Notes: generated by a model not told the origin, from the sequence alone. DNA of 64,000 nt from an uncultured Gemmatimonadota bacterium (GCA_951812955.1 OX638340.1:1376001-1440000), one strand, 5' to 3'; positions 10,838 through 49,909 are shown, counted from the stretch's first letter. Numbers and translations: made by a program.

Positions 10838-11011
10838 AGAAAGAATCCACAGTCAATTGAAAATATAACTCAATGATATTATTCCACTTAAGTTACTTCC
10901 TTCGACCAAGGCATATTTAAACAAAATTATGCTGGCTTCGAGATGATATGCATTCACCAAAGATCCTTCCATTGTACTAATGTTTCTTAAACGTCAGCCT
11001 TGTTAACCTAT

Positions 11012-12721
11012 TTATCGTTGAGTCAGTTGATTAGCACCCTGAGGTCGGACAATTGTTACCAAGTTACGAGCTCTGGTAATCCCAACTCTGAGAAGCCGAC
11101 GGCTACGATTGTAAGGAGGATGTTCTCGCTTTTCGTCAAAAAAACGTGATTCAAACTTGCCTTCCACTATAACGACGCCGTCGAATTCTTTGCCCTTACA
11201 CTTGTGCAAATTCATAAGCACGCATCCTTGTGGGTCACGCTCCAGCGCAAGCAGTAGTTCATGATTTAATACCTTCCGTATTGTAGCGGTTGCTTCTATG
11301 TAACTTCCAGACTCTAACCACAATTCCGATAGTGCTTTAGAAAGTACATCTGTAGCTTGAAACAAACGCACCATACTTGCTGACCGGAATACATCATTTA
11401 TCACTTTGTGTACCCTTAGAATATCTCTTGCACTACGCCAATCGGAAACTGGGTCACCGCGATATTCAATACCGTTGGATGCAATTTCTACCATATTTCT
11501 TGCAGCCTGAATACGCGGGAGGCGGCCCATTATTACCGCCTCTGATGCCTCGGCGAATTGCCGAGTTAGTTTCGAAGCAACTTTCGAATGTTGCTCGGCG
11601 TTTTTTAAGCGAAAATACCTTGAAAGGCAGGCAAGTGTATCTGAGACGGTTCTTGCATCAAATTCAGTTCGCCACTCCAATATGGATCCTACGATTTCAG
11701 CCGAGGAGGCCGATAGATTGGCATCCCATACCACATCGTGAGGTATTGGTTTTATCTCACGCTTTTTATAAACATGAGTATCTTGAAGTATCGCTGAAAG
11801 TTGCGCGACATGCCGATTGCTTTTAGTTAAGACTGCGACACACGGATTGTGAATTCCCTTCTTACGTAACAAAGCGATGGTAAAGTGAACTGCTGCATGA
11901 AAAACTGAGTCAAATCCATTCGGCCAGTAGTATTGAACTATCTTAACATTGCTAGTTTTGGGTAGCTCTTCATTGTTTAAGACAGCGTCTGCGAATGATA
12001 GGATTCCGGCTTGTGGACTTCTGTGATTGACCTTACCAAGATCGAACTCAGCGAAGCCAAGTGTAACCCTAGCTGAGTTTATCCTTTGGAAGCTTACAGT
12101 TGGTCGATAGTCAAATATGCACTGTTCCGGATCGGCTAGACATACTACATCAGTTACACTTGCCAATGATTTAATAAGTCGCCACTGGTCTTCGTCGGTA
12201 TCCTGAAACTCATCAACAATGATTAGCGGAAATCGATCGCCATACATGGATCTTACTGCTTCGCTTTCCGCGACAATCATTGCAGCTCCCTTTGCAAATT
12301 GATCAAAACAGTAGATTCCTTCTACTTGCGCAAGACGAACCTGTTCAGCCTCCCAATCTCCTTCAAAAAAAGACTTCTTCAATCGCTCACCTTTGGGAGT
12401 TAAAATACGAGTAGGGAATCCACCCAAAAGCCGCCCATGTCCTCGCAATATTTCACGACAAAAGAGATGGTAAGTCTTTACCTGAATAAGTCGACGTTCT
12501 TCATTCTTCAATAGGTCCTGACTCCTGCCTAGTATCTGGCGTATCGCTGCTCGTGAGAAGCTTAAGAACAGTATACCTTGACCGGGTTCAAGTCCCTTAC
12601 AGCGAGCTTTGGCTTTCAACAGTGCAATAGTTGTCTTGCCAGATCCAGGGCCACCCTTAACGAGCATGTGGCCTGTTTGATTGATAATAGATTGGTGGAT
12701 TTCTTTTAAATCTAGATTCAT
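11012..12721 (-). CDS. gajB: Gabija GajB, a UvrD/PcrA-like superfamily-1 helicase
   Basis: 569 aa. Walker A VKGGPGSGKTT, motif II IIVDEFQDTD (the DEFQD signature of the UvrD family), and a C-terminal …GVVIVEGKFE…RVGITRARNLVTIV helicase C-domain. The start ATG overlaps the gajA stop (ATGA at 12718-12721). Confidence 0.8.
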   Translation of the reverse strand: MNLDLKEIHQSIINQTGHMLVKGGPGSGKTTIALLKAKARCKGLEPGQGILFLSFSRAAIRQILGRSQDLLKNEERRLIQVKTYHLFCREILRGHGRLLGGFPTRILTPKGERLKKSFFEGDWEAEQVRLAQVEGIYCFDQFAKGAAMIVAESEAVRSMYGDRFPLIIVDEFQDTDEDQWRLIKSLASVTDVVCLADPEQCIFDYRPTVSFQRINSARVTLGFAEFDLGKVNHRSPQAGILSFADAVLNNEELPKTSNVKIVQYYWPNGFDSVFHAAVHFTIALLRKKGIHNPCVAVLTKSNRHVAQLSAILQDTHVYKKREIKPIPHDVVWDANLSASSAEIVGSILEWRTEFDARTVSDTLACLSRYFRLKNAEQHSKVASKLTRQFAEASEAVIMGRLPRIQAARNMVEIASNGIEYRGDPVSDWRSARDILRVHKVINDVFRSASMVRLFQATDVLSKALSELWLESGSYIEATATIRKVLNHELLLALERDPQGCVLMNLHKCKGKEFDGVVIVEGKFESRFFDEKREHPPYNRSRRLLRVGITRARNLVTIVRPQGANQLTQR

Positions 12722-14604
12722 GAATTATCGCCATTATCAGACGCTGATGGCTGTTGGTTATCGCCATTACAATCGGCACCTTCTTCTGATGATTTAACAG
12801 GAGGATCCAATACCAAGTTTAATGCTTCCAATACTGTTCTTATGAAATCCGGTAGCATTTCTCTTTCTTTGCAGTGCTCAATCAAGTTTGCGGCATATCC
12901 ATGTGCTTCACCTTTTCGAGCCTTTAGAACTCTTTTACACAAATCTTTCACATTGTCGTCGGACATTTCCGGACTGTATTGCCGTTCCTGTGGGTAATCC
13001 GATCGATGCCTTGCCTCATTGAGAAAGCTTCTTTGAACTTCAACTGATAACTCGGTCACTAGGAGTTCTTCAATTGAATAGAAGGGGGATTCCCAACTCT
13101 CATCGTAGGATTCCATATTTCGAACATCGTCTACCGACCAAGTGTCGTTATTGGGCTTGTCATAAACTGCAAAGGCAGGTTTCCCAAGTGCTGCGAAAGC
13201 AGGTCCATATCTCGGTATGTCCCCATAGCCTCCAGCATTGAATAAAACTATACCTGCGAGATCGGGATGAGTATAGTCTTGAGTGGGTGACGTATTCTCA
13301 ATAACAGTTGCTGCTGCAGAGAAAACCGAGGCTTCGGTAGATCCTTCGACTACGAGTACTGCTCGACTCAGGACTGCTTCGGCAAACTGTCTTCTATTGG
13401 TTTTGTATGTCTTCTCTTTGATTTCTCCGATATTAACAGGATTTCCCTTTAGAATAGTCTGTTCACGCTCAAGTATAACAATATCAGCTAGCTCGAACTG
13501 CTCTATCACATAAGGAGAGTGTGAGGTTACAATTGCTTGTCCCATCTCCTGAAGCACGAATTTCGTAACCCGACGTTGTGTATGAGGAGGTAACGCTATT
13601 TCTGGTTCTTCCATCGCGAAAATAACAGAATGCCTATCCTTTAATTCAGCAATAAAAGTTAGTAGTGCGAACACAAGCACGTTTATTGTGCCAGTTCCAA
13701 GTTTTTGGAATGGAACTAAATGATCACTTTCCTTCGAAGCTAAAAAGAACTTTACCACATTTCTCAAGTCGTTTCGTGTAAGGTCCGATGCAAAAAAGCC
13801 CGTTGCGTTTTTATCATCAGCAAGTTGGACAAACCGTGCGATCCTGTCACGAACTTCAGATTGAATTTCATTAAGTTGTTGAATGTCGCCAATTGCAGGT
13901 TGAAGATTACGTAAACGATATAATGTTTCTCCCCACATCTGACTAAGACCGGTGCCACCCAATCGGATTATCGTATCGAGCAGTGATCCCCTCTGGAGGC
14001 TTAGTGCTCTGGAACCAGTACGAAGTGCCCGTAAGAACAAGAACCCACAGAAGCGCTTGTGACTCCAAGTAAAGCGTGTCCGACCACTTCCCAGGACATT
14101 CTGTTCTTCAATTTCCTGCTCATCATCATCGATCACTTCAGGGACAGGGTATGCAAAAAACGAATCACCTTCAAAATCGTCTCTTTCTAATTCGTAACGT
14201 CCAAAGAACACAACAGGTAGCGCCCAGACAACTTCAGGCCGATCCGTTACCAACGGACCTTCATCTCCTTCATCAGCATAACATTGTTCTTTTACATTCC
14301 AATGTCGCAGATGGTTCTCGCCAAACCGACGAATTGCCTCGTCTGTAAGATCAACAAGTATTGCTTCGATCTCAATTACAACAGCCTCACCGTCATTAGT
14401 GAGATAGCTGTCTCGATGAAAATCGTGTTCGTCAACTACTGGCCTGCGATTTAGTCTTTCTGGTCCGAGTACTAAGTCAAGTGCCTCGCATACAGTCGAT
14501 TTCCCGCTATTGTTACCACCTACAAGTAGAACGTTATCGCCAAAGTGGATTTCACCATGTTTTATACCGCGGAAGTTTGCCATACGAAGTCTTACTACAC
14601 GCAT
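12718..14604 (-). CDS. gajA: Gabija GajA, an OLD-family ABC ATPase with a C-terminal TOPRIM nuclease domain
   Basis: The ORF-track start is 14733. The Met at 14604 (MRVVRLRMANFRG…) is preceded by GGAGGA with 8-nt spacing, so it is the more likely start. P-loop LVGGNNSGKST, OLD Walker-B/H-loop block IFAMEEPEIALPPH and TOPRIM motif LVVEGSTEASVF. 628 aa. Confidence 0.8.
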   Translation of the reverse strand: MRVVRLRMANFRGIKHGEIHFGDNVLLVGGNNSGKSTVCEALDLVLGPERLNRRPVVDEHDFHRDSYLTNDGEAVVIEIEAILVDLTDEAIRRFGENHLRHWNVKEQCYADEGDEGPLVTDRPEVVWALPVVFFGRYELERDDFEGDSFFAYPVPEVIDDDEQEIEEQNVLGSGRTRFTWSHKRFCGFLFLRALRTGSRALSLQRGSLLDTIIRLGGTGLSQMWGETLYRLRNLQPAIGDIQQLNEIQSEVRDRIARFVQLADDKNATGFFASDLTRNDLRNVVKFFLASKESDHLVPFQKLGTGTINVLVFALLTFIAELKDRHSVIFAMEEPEIALPPHTQRRVTKFVLQEMGQAIVTSHSPYVIEQFELADIVILEREQTILKGNPVNIGEIKEKTYKTNRRQFAEAVLSRAVLVVEGSTEASVFSAAATVIENTSPTQDYTHPDLAGIVLFNAGGYGDIPRYGPAFAALGKPAFAVYDKPNNDTWSVDDVRNMESYDESWESPFYSIEELLVTELSVEVQRSFLNEARHRSDYPQERQYSPEMSDDNVKDLCKRVLKARKGEAHGYAANLIEHCKEREMLPDFIRTVLEALNLVLDPPVKSSEEGADCNGDNQQPSASDNGDNS

Positions 14605-14686
14605 GCTATAGTCCTCCAAATGCAGTTTAATTTGCTTCGATATGAATACATCTTGGTTGTATTTGTAAGAATAGAAACTACCTACA

Positions 14687-15424
14687 TTATACGACATGCT
14701 CAGGATTTGACGGTTTTCTACGCCCAAACGCATACCTGAAAGTCACCCAGAGTATCTTCACTCCCGCCCGGACCGCCCCGGACAGCGTTCCCGTGATCTT
14801 GGAAACCCCGACCCGCTTCCGGTACCGCACCGGGACGTCGAGGGTGCGGTACTTCCTTTGTGCTGCCTTGATCTGCATTTCGACGGTCCAGCCAAAGTTT
14901 TGATCCGCCATTTCGAGCTCGAGCAGCCTGTCGTAGCGTATGGCCCGGAACGGTCCCAGATCGGTATATCGATGTCCGTAGAGCCAACGGATGATCCTGG
15001 GAACGAGGACGTTGCCTATCACGGCCTGGACCGGCATGGCGCCCGGCGCGCGGTGTCCCAGCATCCGTGACCCGATCACCATGTCGTAACCCGCTTCCAC
15101 GACCGGGCGCACCAGGTCTGCCAAGTCTTCTGGGTAATCGCTGTAATCGCCGTCCAGGAACACGATGACGTCCGGATCGAACCGGGCGGCCTCGGCCATG
15201 CCGCGCAGGCAGGCGGCCCCGTACCCGCGCCGGGGTTCCTTCACGACGACCGCGCCACCCTCCGCGGCCACTGCCCCGGTCCGGTCCGTCGAACCGTTGT
15301 CCACGACGATTACGGCCGTGGCCATCCCCTCCGGAATGTGTGCCAGGACCAGTCCGATCGAATCCTCTTCGTTCAGGACCGGAATGATGACCACGATGGT
15401 CTGTTTGTCCGCTGATCTTGCCAT
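14687..15424 (-). CDS. Family-2 glycosyltransferase (dolichyl-phosphate mannosyltransferase-like)
   Basis: …IVVIIPVLNEEDSIGLVLAHIP…VVDNGSTDRTG…VIVFLDGDYSDYPED… is a GT2 fold with a DxD motif. Start chosen at MARSADKQ (15424); the ORF track extends to 15505. Confidence 0.75.
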   Translation of the reverse strand: MARSADKQTIVVIIPVLNEEDSIGLVLAHIPEGMATAVIVVDNGSTDRTGAVAAEGGAVVVKEPRRGYGAACLRGMAEAARFDPDVIVFLDGDYSDYPEDLADLVRPVVEAGYDMVIGSRMLGHRAPGAMPVQAVIGNVLVPRIIRWLYGHRYTDLGPFRAIRYDRLLELEMADQNFGWTVEMQIKAAQRKYRTLDVPVRYRKRVGVSKITGTLSGAVRAGVKILWVTFRYAFGRRKPSNPEHVV

Positions 15425-28857: not shown

Positions 28858-29252
28858 CGTAAAACGTCCAAGCCGACCGTAAGCCGAGTTCTGTACCTTC
28901 GCGGTGAAGGTGGCGATCATCTATCTGGGACGGCTGTCGCCAGCCGCCTCGTGCGACCTAACCCGAGAGTCTCCGGTTTCCCGGCGGTCGAGACGGGCCG
29001 TCTCTCCTCTCCTATTCGGTCTTGCACCGGATGGGGTTTGTCCTGCCGGACCGGTTACCCGGACCGCGGTGAGCTCTTACCTCGCCTTTTCACCTTTGCC
29101 TCCCCGAAGGGATCGGCCGTGTGTTTTCTGTGACACTTTCCGTGGCATCACTGCCCCCTGCCGTTAGCAGGCATCCCGCCCTGTGGTGCTCGGACTTTCC
29201 TCGTCCGCGCGATGGCGAACGCGATCGCCTGGACGACTTGTGACGTTTTACA
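28858..29252 (-). ncRNA. rnpB: RNase P RNA, bacterial type A (M1 RNA)
   Basis: The minus-strand sequence carries the universally conserved blocks AGGAAAGTCCGAGCACCACAGGGC (CR-I), …AAAGGTGAAAAGGCGAGGTAAGAGCTCACC… and ACAGAACTCGGCTTACGG (P4 3' strand). The P1 stem forms between AAAACGTC at the 5' end (~29249) and GACGTTTT at the 3' end (~28861). Length ~395 nt. Confidence 0.85.
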
Positions 29253-45922: not shown

Positions 45923-46246
45923 GTGGGAAATCCAACAGCGATCACAGACGACCAATTCGAGACCGAAGTAATCAACAGCAGCACGCCTGTACTGGTCGAT
46001 TTCTGGGCGGAATGGTGCGGGCCCTGCAAGGCCGTCGCCCCCACGCTTGTCGAGCTGGCGGGCGACTATGACGGACGCTTGAAAATCGTCAAGGTCGACG
46101 TGGACGAAAACCGGGAAGCAGCCACCCGTTTCGGTATCCGGAGTATTCCGAGCCTGTTGATATTCAAGGACGGGGCCGAAGTGGACCGGATTATCGGCGC
46201 GCTCCCCAAGCAGCAACTCGCCGAAAAGATCGACGGTCATCTGTAG
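45923..46246 (+). CDS. trxA: Thioredoxin
   Basis: 107 aa. WAEWCGPCK active site. GTG start with GGAG RBS. Confidence 0.9.
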   Translation: MGNPTAITDDQFETEVINSSTPVLVDFWAEWCGPCKAVAPTLVELAGDYDGRLKIVKVDVDENREAATRFGIRSIPSLLIFKDGAEVDRIIGALPKQQLAEKIDGHL

Positions 46247-47099
46247 CAATTATGTGTCAGTAGTGTTTTTTTTGTCCTCTTGCTTTGAGATGCGTGACCA
46301 TAGGCTACTTACATAACACCCAAAGATACTAATCTATCGTAATTGATGTATCTTAGGAGTTGTGGTGTAACCAATTGATATTTTTATATTTAAGTTAAAA
46401 ACCCATTTGAGTTCTGCCTTTGCGAGAGGCTATGTATAACTTAGGTCTAGTAATCAATTTATATAAACTCCATCAGACTACTCCAAACAGTCCATCCACA
46501 CACCCCCGTAACCATACCCTCCAGTTTTTCCGTTTCTAGCCCCACGACGCAATAAACACTCCATATAAAATCTAACGACTATTCTGTCTTCGTACCGCGG
46601 CAATGTGATCTATATCCAAGTATTGGCTATATCGGTACTGTTCTATAGATCCTTACATTTGATTCAATGGCCTAAGCACTAGCTTCTACACCGTACCATA
46701 ATACCAGATGGCGTAATATTGCGCGTCAGACTGAGTTATCGATTTGCCGTTTTAAAGACAGTATGGGGTTTTACCTGTGGTGGCGAAAATAACAACCAAT
46801 GCCTACCAGCTTGTTATTTCTACTTGATTGCAATCGTTTAAATTAAGTTTGGCTATTTATGGCGAATAAAAGTGGATATTGTCTCAAAATGATATATTAG
46901 GTAAAAATAATCAACTTTAAATTATGACAGTATAAACTGTATAAATTATTGTAATTAGATTCTATTAGTGTTGTTAATTGATTTATTCTGTATGCAGGTG
47001 ATGATATTTTGATCTTGACTTAAGATTATGGATCATTTTATTTAGTGCAGTCATAGTTGGAAATATCACATTGACCGATCATCCAGGGAGGATTACATC

Positions 47100-47522
47100 A
47101 TGGAAGGGTCAGATAGGAGAAGAGATGAGGATTATGTTAATATGCAACGCTTCGTTAAACTTGAACAAAGAGTTGAGAAGCTGGAGCTGTTATTCAACGA
47201 TAAACCATCGGTGCCAATTAAGCCAAAGAAGGAAACATTGCGTGAGTTTATTAAAGGAAAACAGCCACGAAATGATGTAGAAAGAACTATATGCATCCTT
47301 TACTACCGTGAGTTGACAGAAGGCATGGGCGAAACAACTTCCACTGACTTGAAAAATGGATTTAGGCACGCGCGGGAAAAGGTGCCAGCAAATGTATCCG
47401 CTAAACTGGGATTATGCGCTAAGAGAGGGTTCATTGACAGCGTTAGGGAAGAAAAAGGAAAGATCTACTGGTCGATAACAAATACTGGTATTGATTTTGT
47501 GGATGGGCTTAAAACGGAGTGA
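47100..47522 (+). CDS. Hypothetical protein A of a three-gene island cassette. It has a coiled-coil N-terminus and a C-terminal winged-helix-like domain.
   Basis: 140 aa. GGGAGG RBS 8 nt upstream of the ATG. The C-terminal KGKQPRNDVERTICILYY…GFIDSV…IYWSITNTG segment is paralogous to protein B. Confidence 0.5.
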   Translation: MEGSDRRRDEDYVNMQRFVKLEQRVEKLELLFNDKPSVPIKPKKETLREFIKGKQPRNDVERTICILYYRELTEGMGETTSTDLKNGFRHAREKVPANVSAKLGLCAKRGFIDSVREEKGKIYWSITNTGIDFVDGLKTE

Positions 47523-47529
47523 TGAACCT

Positions 47530-48057
47530 ATGAACCTTGTAGATATTGTTAAACAATCTGAAAATGTTGTGGAAGAAAGCAAGGTTAGTGAGGAATATCG
47601 GGCCACTGCCTTTAAAACTGTATTGGAGTTTCTATTAAGTAACAATGATCCATCGATGGACGCACATTCTTCAAACAACATTATTGTAGACCGGACTCAA
47701 GTAACTGTAGTTGAAAACGGTGATTATGAGGAACTTATAGCTGTTAAACAGCCAAAAAACGATTATGAAATCGTAGCCTGCATCGTATATCACTTAACTG
47801 GTGGGATTGTATCAAATTCAGTTACTAGAGTTGAGTTGCTAGATTACATACATCAGAACCCGGGAAACCTTAAAGGTCTTAAGAATCTGAGTGGCGTTAT
47901 TAAGCATACAAGAAGTAATCCATATTATGGATACATAGAAAATGTTAAAGATGCTGAAGAATCCAGTTTTCGACTTTCTGCTCGAGGAAAACAGTTGATA
48001 GATCGATTGCCTGGTAGAGAAGATAAAAAACGTGTAAGATCTACTACTAAAAACTGA
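47530..48057 (+). CDS. Hypothetical protein B of the three-gene cassette, with a C-terminal winged-helix-like domain paralogous to protein A
   Basis: Start at MNLVDIV (GGAG RBS); the ORF track starts at 47491. It shares the KQPxNDxE…CI[LV]Y…T…[DE]L… block with protein A. Confidence 0.5.
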   Translation: MNLVDIVKQSENVVEESKVSEEYRATAFKTVLEFLLSNNDPSMDAHSSNNIIVDRTQVTVVENGDYEELIAVKQPKNDYEIVACIVYHLTGGIVSNSVTRVELLDYIHQNPGNLKGLKNLSGVIKHTRSNPYYGYIENVKDAEESSFRLSARGKQLIDRLPGREDKKRVRSTTKN

Positions 48058-48074
48058 GTCTACTGGAGTTCTTA

Positions 48075-48863
48075 ATGGATTTAATGGTCAAAGATGTAGA
48101 AACTATACTTGTCTCGACTTTTAAGCGAAATTATGTCCATTCCGTGTTAAATCATTATACAAAAGCAGTTGAAGGTTTTGTCTGTAGAAACTGGGATTCT
48201 GCACTGACTAATGCTGGAAAATTCGTGGAAGCATCATTGAAAGTACTATGTTCATTTACAGGGAGCGAAGTACCCGGAGGTCCGAAGTTTAAAGTTGATA
48301 AGGCTATCGTTTCTCTTGAGCAAACTAATGCAGATACTGATCGATCTGTAAGACTAACTATACCACGAGCTTGTCGGTTTCTTTTTGATATAGTCAGTAA
48401 TCGTGGCGCTCGACATGACTCCGACGAATTTACCCCATCTAAAGCAGATGCAAGTGTAGTATTACCAACTATTTCATGGATTCTTGCGGAAATGTTACGT
48501 CTAGCTAGCAGGAACGTATCTGATAGTGGTAAGGTCGAAGAATTGATTGATCAAATCACAGCAAAAAAGAACCCAATCTACGAAACTATCGACGGCAGGA
48601 CGTATGTAAACCACCCTGGACTTTCTTTAAACAAAATAGCAATGTTATTACTGTATAAAGCCTATCCTAGAAGGATTCTTAGGAGAGACCTAGCAGAACA
48701 ACTCAAACTTAATAATAGCAGTTCCAAAAAACCTGCGATCAGAATGGCTTTGACACGTCTTAAAGACATTGTGGATGAAAACGATAGTGGAATGGTTATA
48801 CGTCAAAATGGCAGAGAACAAGCTGAAACATTGATCTCCTTTATAAGTACAGACGGTCATTAA
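48075..48863 (+). CDS. Hypothetical protein C of the three-gene cassette: an N-terminal alpha-helical domain with an RNRGARHDSDEF segment, and a C-terminal winged-helix
   Basis: 262 aa, GGAG RBS. The C-terminus …LNKIAMLLLYKAYPRRILRRDLAEQLKL…AIRMALTRLKD… is a classic wHTH. The N-terminal domain has no confident family match. Confidence 0.5.
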   Translation: MDLMVKDVETILVSTFKRNYVHSVLNHYTKAVEGFVCRNWDSALTNAGKFVEASLKVLCSFTGSEVPGGPKFKVDKAIVSLEQTNADTDRSVRLTIPRACRFLFDIVSNRGARHDSDEFTPSKADASVVLPTISWILAEMLRLASRNVSDSGKVEELIDQITAKKNPIYETIDGRTYVNHPGLSLNKIAMLLLYKAYPRRILRRDLAEQLKLNNSSSKKPAIRMALTRLKDIVDENDSGMVIRQNGREQAETLISFISTDGH

Positions 48864-48997
48864 ATCGCGAAACTGCGTTAGTGGCTGTTATGTGATACGA
48901 TAATAGTCAGTTGGAGACGGGAATGTAGCTACCTGCTCTCCCGGCTTTTGTATATGATCCGGTCTGAAGGATCGAACAGCATGCGGAGACCAGGGAC

Positions 48998-49909
48998 ATG
49001 CAGGGCGTCGTACGCAGACTGAAAGACGGTTTGGCCAGAACGCGGGACGGACTGGTACGAAGGATCGACCAGGCCGTGGGACGGTATGACCGCATCGACG
49101 AAGACCTGCTGGAGGAAATCGAATCCATCCTGCTGCAGACCGACGTGGGCATGGAAACGACCATGCGGATCATCGACGGACTGCGCGACCGCGCGGTCGA
49201 CAGCCGGACCCGGAATCCCGAAGACCTCATGAGGCTGCTCCGCGAGGAAATGGCGGGTATCCTGAGCGATCCGGCACCTGCTGAATCAGACCGCAGTCCC
49301 CATGTCATCATGGTCGTGGGCGTCAACGGGTCGGGCAAAACGACGACCGCGGGGAAGATGGCGGCGCGTTATGTCCGGGAAGGGAAGAAGGTTCTGCTGG
49401 CCGCGGCGGATACTTTCCGCGCGGCGGCCATCGATCAGCTGGAAGTCTGGGCGCGCCGGGCGGAGGCGGACCTCATCCGTCACCAGCACGGTTCCGATCC
49501 GTCGGCCGTGGCCTTCGACGCGATGCAGGCCGCCCTGTCCCGGAATGCGGACGTCCTCATCATCGACACGGCGGGCAGGTTGCACACCAAGGACAACCTG
49601 ATGGAGGAACTGAAGAAGATCAAGCGTACCCTCGGCAGGCAACTGGACGGCGCCCCCCACGAGGTGCTGCTCGTTCTCGACGGCACGACGGGACAGAATG
49701 CGCTATCCCAGGCCCGCGTCTTCAGCGAAGCCCTGGGCGGACTGACTGGCATCGCGCTTACGAAGCTGGACGGGACCGCCCGAGGCGGCATCGTGTTCGC
49801 CATCGGCGAGCAACTGGCCGTTCCCGTCAAACTCATCGGCGTGGGTGAAAGCATCGAGGATCTGCAGGATTTCGACGCCCCAGCCTTCGTGGAAGCCCTC
49901 TTCGACTGA
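48998..49909 (+). CDS. ftsY: Signal-recognition-particle receptor FtsY (NG domain only)
   Basis: 303 aa. SRP54-type GTPase motifs VVGVNGSGKTTT, DTAGR and TKLDG. Confidence 0.9.
   Translation: MQGVVRRLKDGLARTRDGLVRRIDQAVGRYDRIDEDLLEEIESILLQTDVGMETTMRIIDGLRDRAVDSRTRNPEDLMRLLREEMAGILSDPAPAESDRSPHVIMVVGVNGSGKTTTAGKMAARYVREGKKVLLAAADTFRAAAIDQLEVWARRAEADLIRHQHGSDPSAVAFDAMQAALSRNADVLIIDTAGRLHTKDNLMEELKKIKRTLGRQLDGAPHEVLLVLDGTTGQNALSQARVFSEALGGLTGIALTKLDGTARGGIVFAIGEQLAVPVKLIGVGESIEDLQDFDAPAFVEALFD

Follow-up and report, generated by a model that had tools for sequence, protein, structure and literature searches.

Genes and features of the locus

The window analyzed here is a stretch of 64,000 nucleotides (nt) from an uncultured Gemmatimonadota bacterium (GCA_951812955.1, OX638340.1:1376001-1440000), and all positions are counted from its first letter. 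Between a rhodanese gene and a glycosyltransferase gene, this window contains a block of low GC content with two minus-strand genes, gajA and gajB, whose products correspond to GajA and GajB, the two proteins of the anti-phage system Gabija. The features of the two genes are as follows.

12718..14604, minus strand: gajA, encoding a class 2 OLD-family protein of 628 amino acids (aa) (PADLOC, Pfam and match of the AlphaFold2 (AF2) fold)
14613..14617, minus strand: GGAGG ribosome-binding site with an 8-nt spacer to the ATG of gajA (sequence read directly)
14494..14520, minus strand: GajA Walker A motif, residues G29-T37, GGNNSGKST, including K35 (translation; near-invariant in 49 homologues)
13090..13368, minus strand: GajA Toprim core, residues about 413-505, with E420, E424 and D482 (Pfam OLD-like_TOPRIM, alignment to the Bacillus cereus GajA (BcGajA), invariant columns)
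12808..13074, minus strand: GajA helical domain, residues about 511-599, with the invariant E512 and R563-K564-G565 (AF2 helices, invariant columns)
12721..12804, minus strand: disordered acidic tail of GajA, residues 601-628, PPVKSSEEGADCNGDNQQPSASDNGDNS (predicted local distance difference test (pLDDT) of 30-33; unaligned in most homologues)
12718..12721, minus strand: ATGA overlap of the gajA stop and the gajB start (read directly, ...AAT TCA TGA / ATG AAT CTA...)
11012..12721, minus strand: gajB, encoding a UvrD/PcrA/Rep-like superfamily 1A (SF1A) helicase of 569 aa (PADLOC, Pfam and match of the AF2 fold)
12629..12655, minus strand: GajB Walker A motif, residues G23-T31, GGPGSGKTT (translation; invariant in 40 homologues)
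12200..12214, minus strand: GajB motif II, DEFQD, residues 170-174 (translation; invariant in homologues)

Both genes matched their curated profiles over nearly the full length. GajA aligned to the PADLOC profile GajA PDLC00086 with E=4.3e-221 and 733.8 bits, covering positions 1-589 of the 600 in the profile, and GajB aligned to GajB PDLC00104 with E=1.1e-183 and 610.1 bits, covering positions 3-568 of 574. Other defence families scored approximately 10-fold lower or worse in this profile search, which the preliminary description of the locus had proposed as a check on its core reading, namely an OLD-ATPase/Toprim GajA next to a UvrD-like GajB. The Pfam domains agreed with the profiles: GajA contains AAA_15 (83 bits), AAA_21, DUF2813 and OLD-like_TOPRIM (29.4 bits, above the cut-off of 23.2), and GajB contains UvrD-helicase (96.5 bits), AAA_19, UvrD_C and UvrD_C_2. 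Together with the predicted folds described below, these results bear out the core reading. The overlap at 12718-12721 and both minus-strand open reading frames (ORFs) that the preliminary description had reported were likewise found when the sequence was read directly, and as judged from this overlap gajA and gajB are translationally coupled. The longest ORF at gajA extends to 14733 and overlaps the glycosyltransferase gene. We placed the start at the ATG at 14602-14604, which agrees with the homologues, with the PADLOC profile, whose match to the long ORF begins at residue 44, and with the copy of this protein in the database (P0001), likewise of 628 aa.

From its N terminus onwards, GajA consists of an ABC ATPase that carries a dimerisation insert, a C-terminal Toprim and helical domain, and a disordered tail. 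All motifs quoted in the earlier account are present in the two translations, which are LVGGNNSGKST, EEPEIALPPH and LVVEGSTEASVF in GajA, and GGPGSGKTT and IIVDEFQDTD in GajB. Other motifs of GajB are ADPEQ (196-200), NHRS (232-235), HKCKGKE (506-512) and VGITRAR (546-552). Invariant columns were examined in 49 homologues of GajA and 40 homologues of GajB. In the former, K35, the EEPE Walker B block, H362 of the H-loop, E420, E424, D482, E512 and R563-K564-G565 are invariant or near-invariant; in the latter, GxxGxGKT, DEFQD, Q200 (motif III), R234, and R545 and R550 (motif VI) are invariant. E420 of GajA aligns to the catalytic E379 of BcGajA. Judging by position and conservation, E512 and K564 are the likely counterparts of E508 and K562 in the OLD protein of Burkholderia pseudomallei (BpOLD) (PMC6755086).

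The predicted structures pointed to the same families. The AF2 model of GajA has a mean pLDDT of 74, with confident ATPase and Toprim domains and, after the Toprim strands, a confident all-helical stretch (helices 511-518, 521-531, 549-562, 570-576 and 586-599, pLDDT 79-96). Its best folds in the PDB were 8sm3_A (BcGajA, E=3.1e-17) and 6p74 (the OLD protein of Thermus scotoductus, TsOLD, E=5.2e-17), with 8x5i_B also among the best and the retron-Eco8 OLD effectors next. The AF2 model of GajB (pLDDT 81) matched Rep, UvrD and PcrA best (E=1e-19 to 1e-17, TMq approximately 0.57), compared with E=1.5e-14 and a TMq of 0.36 for the B. cereus GajB (BcGajB, 8sm3_B). This better superposition on Rep/UvrD/PcrA suggests that the modeled GajB has a fuller accessory (2B-like) helical region at about residues 334-494. 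At the sequence level, the matches to solved structures were weak: E=3e-9 for TsOLD (6P74) and 4.5e-6 for BcGajA, and about 1e-9 for GajB against the BcGajB structure. With subfamily profiles these matches became somewhat better (7e-11 for 6P74).

The two proteins are both present and adjacent, which is the PADLOC rule for Gabija, and the SF1 helicase partner is co-oriented with gajA. Class 2 OLD is a synonym of GajA and is defined by the UvrD-like partner (PMC10568477). The coupled UvrD-like partner and the curated profile matches therefore make the pair a Gabija under the accepted definition. Overall, we put at about 90% the probability that the block is a complete, intact two-gene Gabija anti-phage operon, horizontally acquired at a variable junction and kept under purifying selection, with a mechanism to be read by homology. 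It is an ordinary Gabija of a common, catalogued kind, and not a new type of system.

Alternative identities and points against the assignment

The helicase fold nearest to Rep/UvrD/PcrA, as well as a weak N-terminal similarity of GajA to the P-loops of RecF, Rad50 and SMC, would also be expected if the two genes were a housekeeping DNA-repair pair of the core genome, that is, a RecF/SbcC/Rad50-like ATPase with a UvrD/Rep/PcrA helicase. The preliminary description had set such a placement, with conserved synteny in related genomes, against Gabija. However, the scores stayed far below the NCBIfam cut-offs. The RecF models reached 18-20 bits against cut-offs of 172-386 (recF 19.7 against 172) and Rad50 reached 16.7 against 700, with the P-loop region alone aligning; the equivalogs of the helicase reached 77 against 911 (pcrA), 68 against 1144 (uvrD) and 65 against 951 (rep). 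GajA moreover contains a Toprim domain. Close relatives lack the pair at this junction, and in five of them the site is empty. The GC content at third codon positions (GC3) is 0.35-0.37 for the Gabija genes against 0.73-0.78 for the flanking genes. With scores below the cut-offs and no conserved synteny, a housekeeping repair pair is effectively refuted.

Another OLD or ABC-ATPase defence system that resembles Gabija was also considered, namely PARIS (AriA/AriB), Septu (PtuA/PtuB), a retron-Eco8 OLD effector or MADS (MAD3). GajA has secondary PADLOC and NCBIfam matches to AriA, Old, mad3, PtuA and the retron Eco8 effector, and structural matches to retron Eco8 and PtuA. Yet these profile matches are partial, approximately 10-fold lower (at most 83 bits against 734) and far under the NCBIfam cut-offs. 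The block consists of two genes only, without an AriB, a PtuB, a reverse transcriptase, a non-coding RNA or a methyltransferase partner, and the actual partner is a full-length GajB match. For PARIS in particular, the AriA profiles cover only residues about 242-411 (61-81 bits), the Toprim domain is fused in GajA, and the block lacks an AriB-like gene. Septu, retron-OLD and MADS were rejected on their partial, low-scoring matches and on the partner genes missing from the block. We regard this family of alternatives as extremely unlikely. Class 1 OLD was rejected on the presence of the coupled gajB, whereas a class 1 OLD is a stand-alone gene.

Several observations nevertheless weigh against the assignment to Gabija or against a close reading of its mechanism. 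The identity to BcGajA and BcGajB is very low, 12-16% in structural alignments. Class 2 OLDs are told apart from class 1 by a helical domain or insert that goes with Toprim; the GajA model shows its helical region after the Toprim strands, but the fold search scores the class 1 TsOLD about as high as the class 2 BcGajA for GajA, so that it does not separate the classes. The dimerisation insert (about residues 190-306) has a pLDDT below 50, so the assembly interfaces cannot be checked in the model. A scan for sigma-70-type sites found no promoter upstream of gajA on the minus strand. In the literature, we found no member of the present subfamily with a published demonstration of phage defence; for a protective function, the only indirect support comes from the defence islands around homologues, the variable junction and the purifying selection. 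The two published mechanisms of Gabija, abortive nucleotide depletion and non-abortive end targeting, conflict with each other. The Toprim DxD motif of GajA reads D482-K483-P484, with the second Asp replaced by Pro, although Schiltz et al. describe the DxD residues of BpOLD as absolutely conserved in class 2 OLDs (PMC6755086). Among the defining features of Gabija that we tested, the complete DxD motif was the only one not found.

The Toprim variant, the subfamily and the expected mechanism

The position of the replacement is given by the profile alignment, which places the residues 'ydkp' of GajA on 'hded' of TsOLD. Among representatives of clusters at 50% identity, the second Asp is absent in relatives down to approximately 33% identity, and the DxD motif is retained in more distant ones, so that D-K-P characterises a large clade and is not peculiar to the present locus. 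Next to it, GajA is longer than the consensus by one residue after P484 (PNND versus P-NA; positions 13159-13167 of the window correspond to residues 480-482). D432 and D434 of BcGajA are listed in its active site by Antine et al. (PMC10781630). In BpOLD, Schiltz et al. report that D457, the second Asp and thus the counterpart of D434, contacts metal A through water only, and that single substitutions were without discernible effect (PMC6755086).

One consequence of the variant could be a pair derived from Gabija with an impaired or repurposed nuclease, in which the D-K-P GajA acts as a nickase only or as a non-catalytic sensor. The replacement here and in relatives to about 33% identity, with DxD kept in distant relatives, would be compatible with this, and full processive cleavage by BpOLD requires both metal sites intact (PMC6755086). 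Nevertheless, the water-mediated contact in BpOLD and the lack of a discernible effect of single substitutions there speak against it, the remaining catalytic positions are all invariant, both genes are under purifying selection, and the clade has many members and is associated with defence islands. We consider such a loss or change of function very unlikely for what we read as an intact Gabija operon. A weaker departure from the archetype deserves somewhat more credit. The clade of D-K-P GajA proteins with longer, UvrD/Rep-like GajB partners may form a mechanistically distinct subtype of Gabija, for example with one-metal nicking and a truly translocating helicase, unlike the mode of B. cereus, but we still hold this to be rather improbable.

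Whether the pair stands apart in other ways was judged from its homologues. There are more than 5000 relatives of GajA at E<=1e-10, and the identity to hundreds of subfamily members is 53-63%. The matches named include Acidobacterium capsulatum, Afipia carboxidovorans OM5, Xanthobacter, Devosia and Inquilinus for GajA, and Pseudomonas aeruginosa, Delftia and Achromobacter, among others, for GajB. In the 120 closest homologues, GajA ranges from 592 to 651 aa with a median of 616, and GajB from 566 to 579 aa with a median of 568. The preliminary description had proposed a divergent subtype on the grounds of an acidic tail of about 60 aa in GajA and a GajB longer than typical. Beyond the last conserved helix, however, the tail comprises 28 aa (601-628), with six acidic residues and one basic residue, and is predicted to be disordered; every GajA homologue has its own low-complexity variable tail of roughly 15-50 residues. 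GajB is indeed longer than the 494 aa of the B. cereus protein, but at 569 aa it is not long for its own subfamily. Both lengths are typical of a large, profiled subfamily, and the case for a divergent subtype on these grounds does not hold.

The coding region of the tail also contains a perfect 12-nt direct repeat, TTATCGCCATTA, at 12725-12736 and 12758-12769, which encodes NGDN twice and looks like a small slippage-type duplication in the disordered tail.

Relatives of the pair are found in other defence settings. In Afipia carboxidovorans OM5 (CP002826.1, L083:2510-13734), a GajA/GajB pair with 57% and 55% identity has the same 4-nt overlap; a helix-turn-helix gene, a type II methylase and a BsuBI/PstI-type restriction enzyme lie on one side of it, and CTD7, MC3 and LmuB_C (Lamassu-like) lie on the other. 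On an Arthrobacter plasmid, a homologous coupled pair adjoins a toxin-antitoxin pair and an ImmA/IrrE protease gene. Only 16 plasmid records encode relatives, all of them below 60% identity, and no phage record encoding a relative was found. The DEFQD motif is present in all 120 close GajB homologues, including those of P. aeruginosa, whereas the motif of GajB in the Gabija of P. aeruginosa PA14 was reported as DESQ (PMC12407980). The experimentally tested PA14 system probably belongs, on this motif, to a different subfamily from the present pair. We found no experimental study of any member of the D-K-P clade in the literature.

The comparison with characterized systems follows the same lines. 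The Gabija of B. cereus VD045 (PDB 8SM3, 8J4T, 8JQB and 8U7I) has the same gene order, gajA then gajB. In both systems, one protein combines an ABC ATPase that carries a dimerisation insert with a Toprim and helical domain, and the other is an SF1A helicase with Walker A and DEXQD. The B. cereus GajA is the best structural match of ours, with E420 corresponding to the catalytic E379. By contrast, the present proteins are longer (GajA 628 versus 578 aa, GajB 569 versus 494 aa), GajA has D-K-P in place of D432-x-D434 and a disordered acidic tail in addition, and GajB superposes better on full Rep/UvrD/PcrA (TMq 0.57 versus 0.36). The members of the PADLOC subfamily PDLC00086/PDLC00104, which occur in defence islands, share the lengths, the 4-nt overlap, D-K-P and the variable tail; only the host lineage and the insertion site differ, and no functional difference from them is apparent. 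The class 2 OLDs of B. pseudomallei and Xanthomonas campestris (PMC6755086) resemble the present pair in the OLD gene beside a UvrD-like helicase. Shared residues are the Glu of the Toprim domain and another Glu at +4 (EGSTE), the first Asp of DxD and, in the helical domain, an acidic residue where it begins and an invariant Lys (K564). These class 2 OLDs differ in that GajA has no significant sequence match to their PDB entries, lacks the second Asp of DxD, and has no recognisable TxE (S510-I-E512 here, with the consensus G-I-E). Class 1 OLDs (TsOLD 6P74 and phage P2 Old) share the ATPase-Toprim architecture, and 6P74 is the top PDB sequence match of GajA, but they are encoded by a stand-alone gene, whereas GajA here comes with a coupled GajB helicase (PMC10568477).

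The mechanism that we expect is drawn by analogy from the systems of B. cereus and P. aeruginosa. In B. cereus, a GajA tetramer docks four GajB subunits, and complex formation is needed for defence (PMC10781630). GajA acts as a nicking endonuclease of the Toprim type and is controlled by the concentration of nucleotides (PMC8136825), and GajB senses the DNA termini produced by GajA and hydrolyses (d)ATP and (d)GTP (10.1101/2023.05.02.539174). In P. aeruginosa PA14, the system was described as a non-abortive targeting of linear DNA ends that are unprotected by RecBCD (PMC12407980). In the present pair, a GajA tetramer would likewise dock four GajB subunits. Invading DNA would be nicked or cleaved at the Toprim site of GajA, which nucleotides bound to the ATPase domain would restrain, and GajB would engage the DNA ends and hydrolyse (d)ATP and (d)GTP. 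Phage DNA would then be destroyed by the complex once the nucleotide pool falls, or where linear ends lack the protection of RecBCD. We expect that the pair works by one of these two published modes, between which the sequence cannot decide, and D-K-P as well as the longer GajB would leave room for differences.

The junction, the history of the insertion and its significance

The borders of the block were defined by composition and by comparison with relatives in which the site is empty. The corresponding features are given below.

10838..14722, no strand: inserted low-GC block with the Gabija operon (GC drop; homology break and return relative to empty-site relatives)
14605..14722, minus strand: leader upstream of gajA, into which the GT2 gene reads with its final 11 codons and stop codon (14687-14722) (sequence and alignment)
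10838..11011, no strand: AT-rich non-coding stretch from the sseA stop to the gajB stop, that is, to the 3' end of the operon (sequence)

Across about 10838-14720, a block of 3.9 kb, the GC content is 0.42-0.46, compared with 0.60-0.67 in the flanks. The values of about 40% and 65% given in the preliminary description were slightly exaggerated, though correct in substance. The flanking genes encode a two-domain rhodanese (sseA-like) and a GT2 glycosyltransferase, and their 3' ends converge on the block. The surrounding housekeeping genes encode GMP synthase, a WaaA-LpxK fusion, a protein with a Helicase_C_3 domain, the rhodanese, GT2, SMC, a cytidylyltransferase and BamD. The placement between sseA and a GT2 gene, without integrase or tRNA, also stood: no integrase or transposase was found among the annotated neighbouring genes, and there is no tRNA in the whole window.

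On the left, the alignment to the empty-site relatives is lost directly after the stop of the sseA/rhodanese gene (10837). On the right, it returns at about 14723, within the terminal codons of GT2. Here this gene reads into the insert for 11 extra codons and its stop (14687-14722), which give the C terminus ...RYAFGRRKPSNPEHVV*, whereas GT2 in the empty-site relative L010 (L-numbers denote loci from other genomes) terminates in ...RYAFGK*, so the native 3' end of GT2 has been replaced through the insertion. The stretch at 10838..11011 shows no similarity to its counterpart in the metagenome scaffold L001 or to any other locus compared. The non-coding block ends match nothing, L001 included, and therefore no conserved att-like site was found. 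Neither target-site duplications nor inverted repeats were detected at the block ends, and elsewhere there were only short repeat pairs of the chance type. The promoter and terminator scan gave no convincing terminator after gajB in 10838..11011; such a scan is uninformative for this host lineage.

With the rhodanese gene as anchor, we collected 80 loci from other genomes. The closest of them have a rhodanese 82-89% identical and come from metagenome-assembled genomes labelled Latescibacterota or Gemmatimonadota. The junction is empty, with rhodanese and GT2 end to end, in L006, L007, L010, L015 and the more distant L017. In others it is occupied by different low-GC cargo. L004 carries SspBCD with an NsnA-like/REase-like gene (L004:10853-20852), and an NsnA-like gene or an SspC homologue was seen in the scanned parts of L014 and L016. 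L011 carries Mokosh MkoA/MkoB together with PLD-, MzaB- and PbeA-like genes (L011:10850-20849). DndB-like genes lie at the junctions of L003 and L013, an immunoglobulin-like surface protein at those of L009 and L018, and ORFs without a family match at those of L005 (10850-12627) and L012 (10850-12955). Neither GajA nor GajB is encoded in any of the 80 rhodanese-anchored loci. Outside the window, the same Gabija occurred at the same site only in the scaffold L001 (and a fragment, L002), with 85% identity in GajA, 83% in GajB and the same 4-nt overlap. The rhodanese|GT2 junction is a variable hotspot in this lineage, either empty or with differing cargo. Horizontal acquisition, as proposed earlier, agrees with the low GC and GC3 of the block and with a junction that is empty or otherwise occupied in relatives.

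Between the window and L001, the ratio of nonsynonymous to synonymous divergence (dN/dS) is 0.15 for GajA and 0.14 for GajB, with a synonymous divergence (dS) of 0.52-0.70. The flanking genes are comparable, with a dS of 0.40-0.87 and a dN/dS of 0.09-0.15. The GC3 of the Gabija genes is 0.35-0.41 in both the window and L001 (11012-14604 versus L001:10001-13590), compared with 0.73-0.86 in the flanks, with no visible shift to the host composition. A dS like that of the flanks and a low dN/dS would fit a single, fairly old acquisition under purifying selection. The data would be compatible, too, with hotspot cargo that was exchanged repeatedly among relatives.

Elsewhere in the window, a second low-GC island lies at 46250-48900 (GC 0.29-0.43 compared with 0.62-0.69 in its flanks), between a thioredoxin-like ORF (45923-46246) and an ftsY-like ORF (48998-49909). 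It contains three same-strand ORFs (47100-47522, 47491-48057 and 48075-48863) none of which matched Pfam or PADLOC at E<=0.1, and a stretch of about 850 bp without an ORF of at least 60 aa. This island may be uncharacterised accessory or defence cargo. The only match in the window above the Rfam gathering threshold is an RNase P class A RNA gene at 28865-29240 on the minus strand (274.8 bits).

Gabija has been reported from roughly 13-15% of sequenced prokaryotic genomes. As one more instance of a common system, which standard tools would call automatically, the locus has little significance. The junction, on the other hand, is a clean hotspot without an integrase in an uncultured lineage, well suited to a search for new defence genes and to studies of cargo exchange by flanking homology; the unannotated cargo in L005, L012 and L003 provides candidate new defence genes. 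If the D-K-P clade were in fact a distinct subtype, the mechanism of the archetype may not transfer to it. In this respect, the clade-wide D-K-P and the longer GajB point to a large clade of Gabija whose biochemistry may differ from that of the Bacillus archetype.

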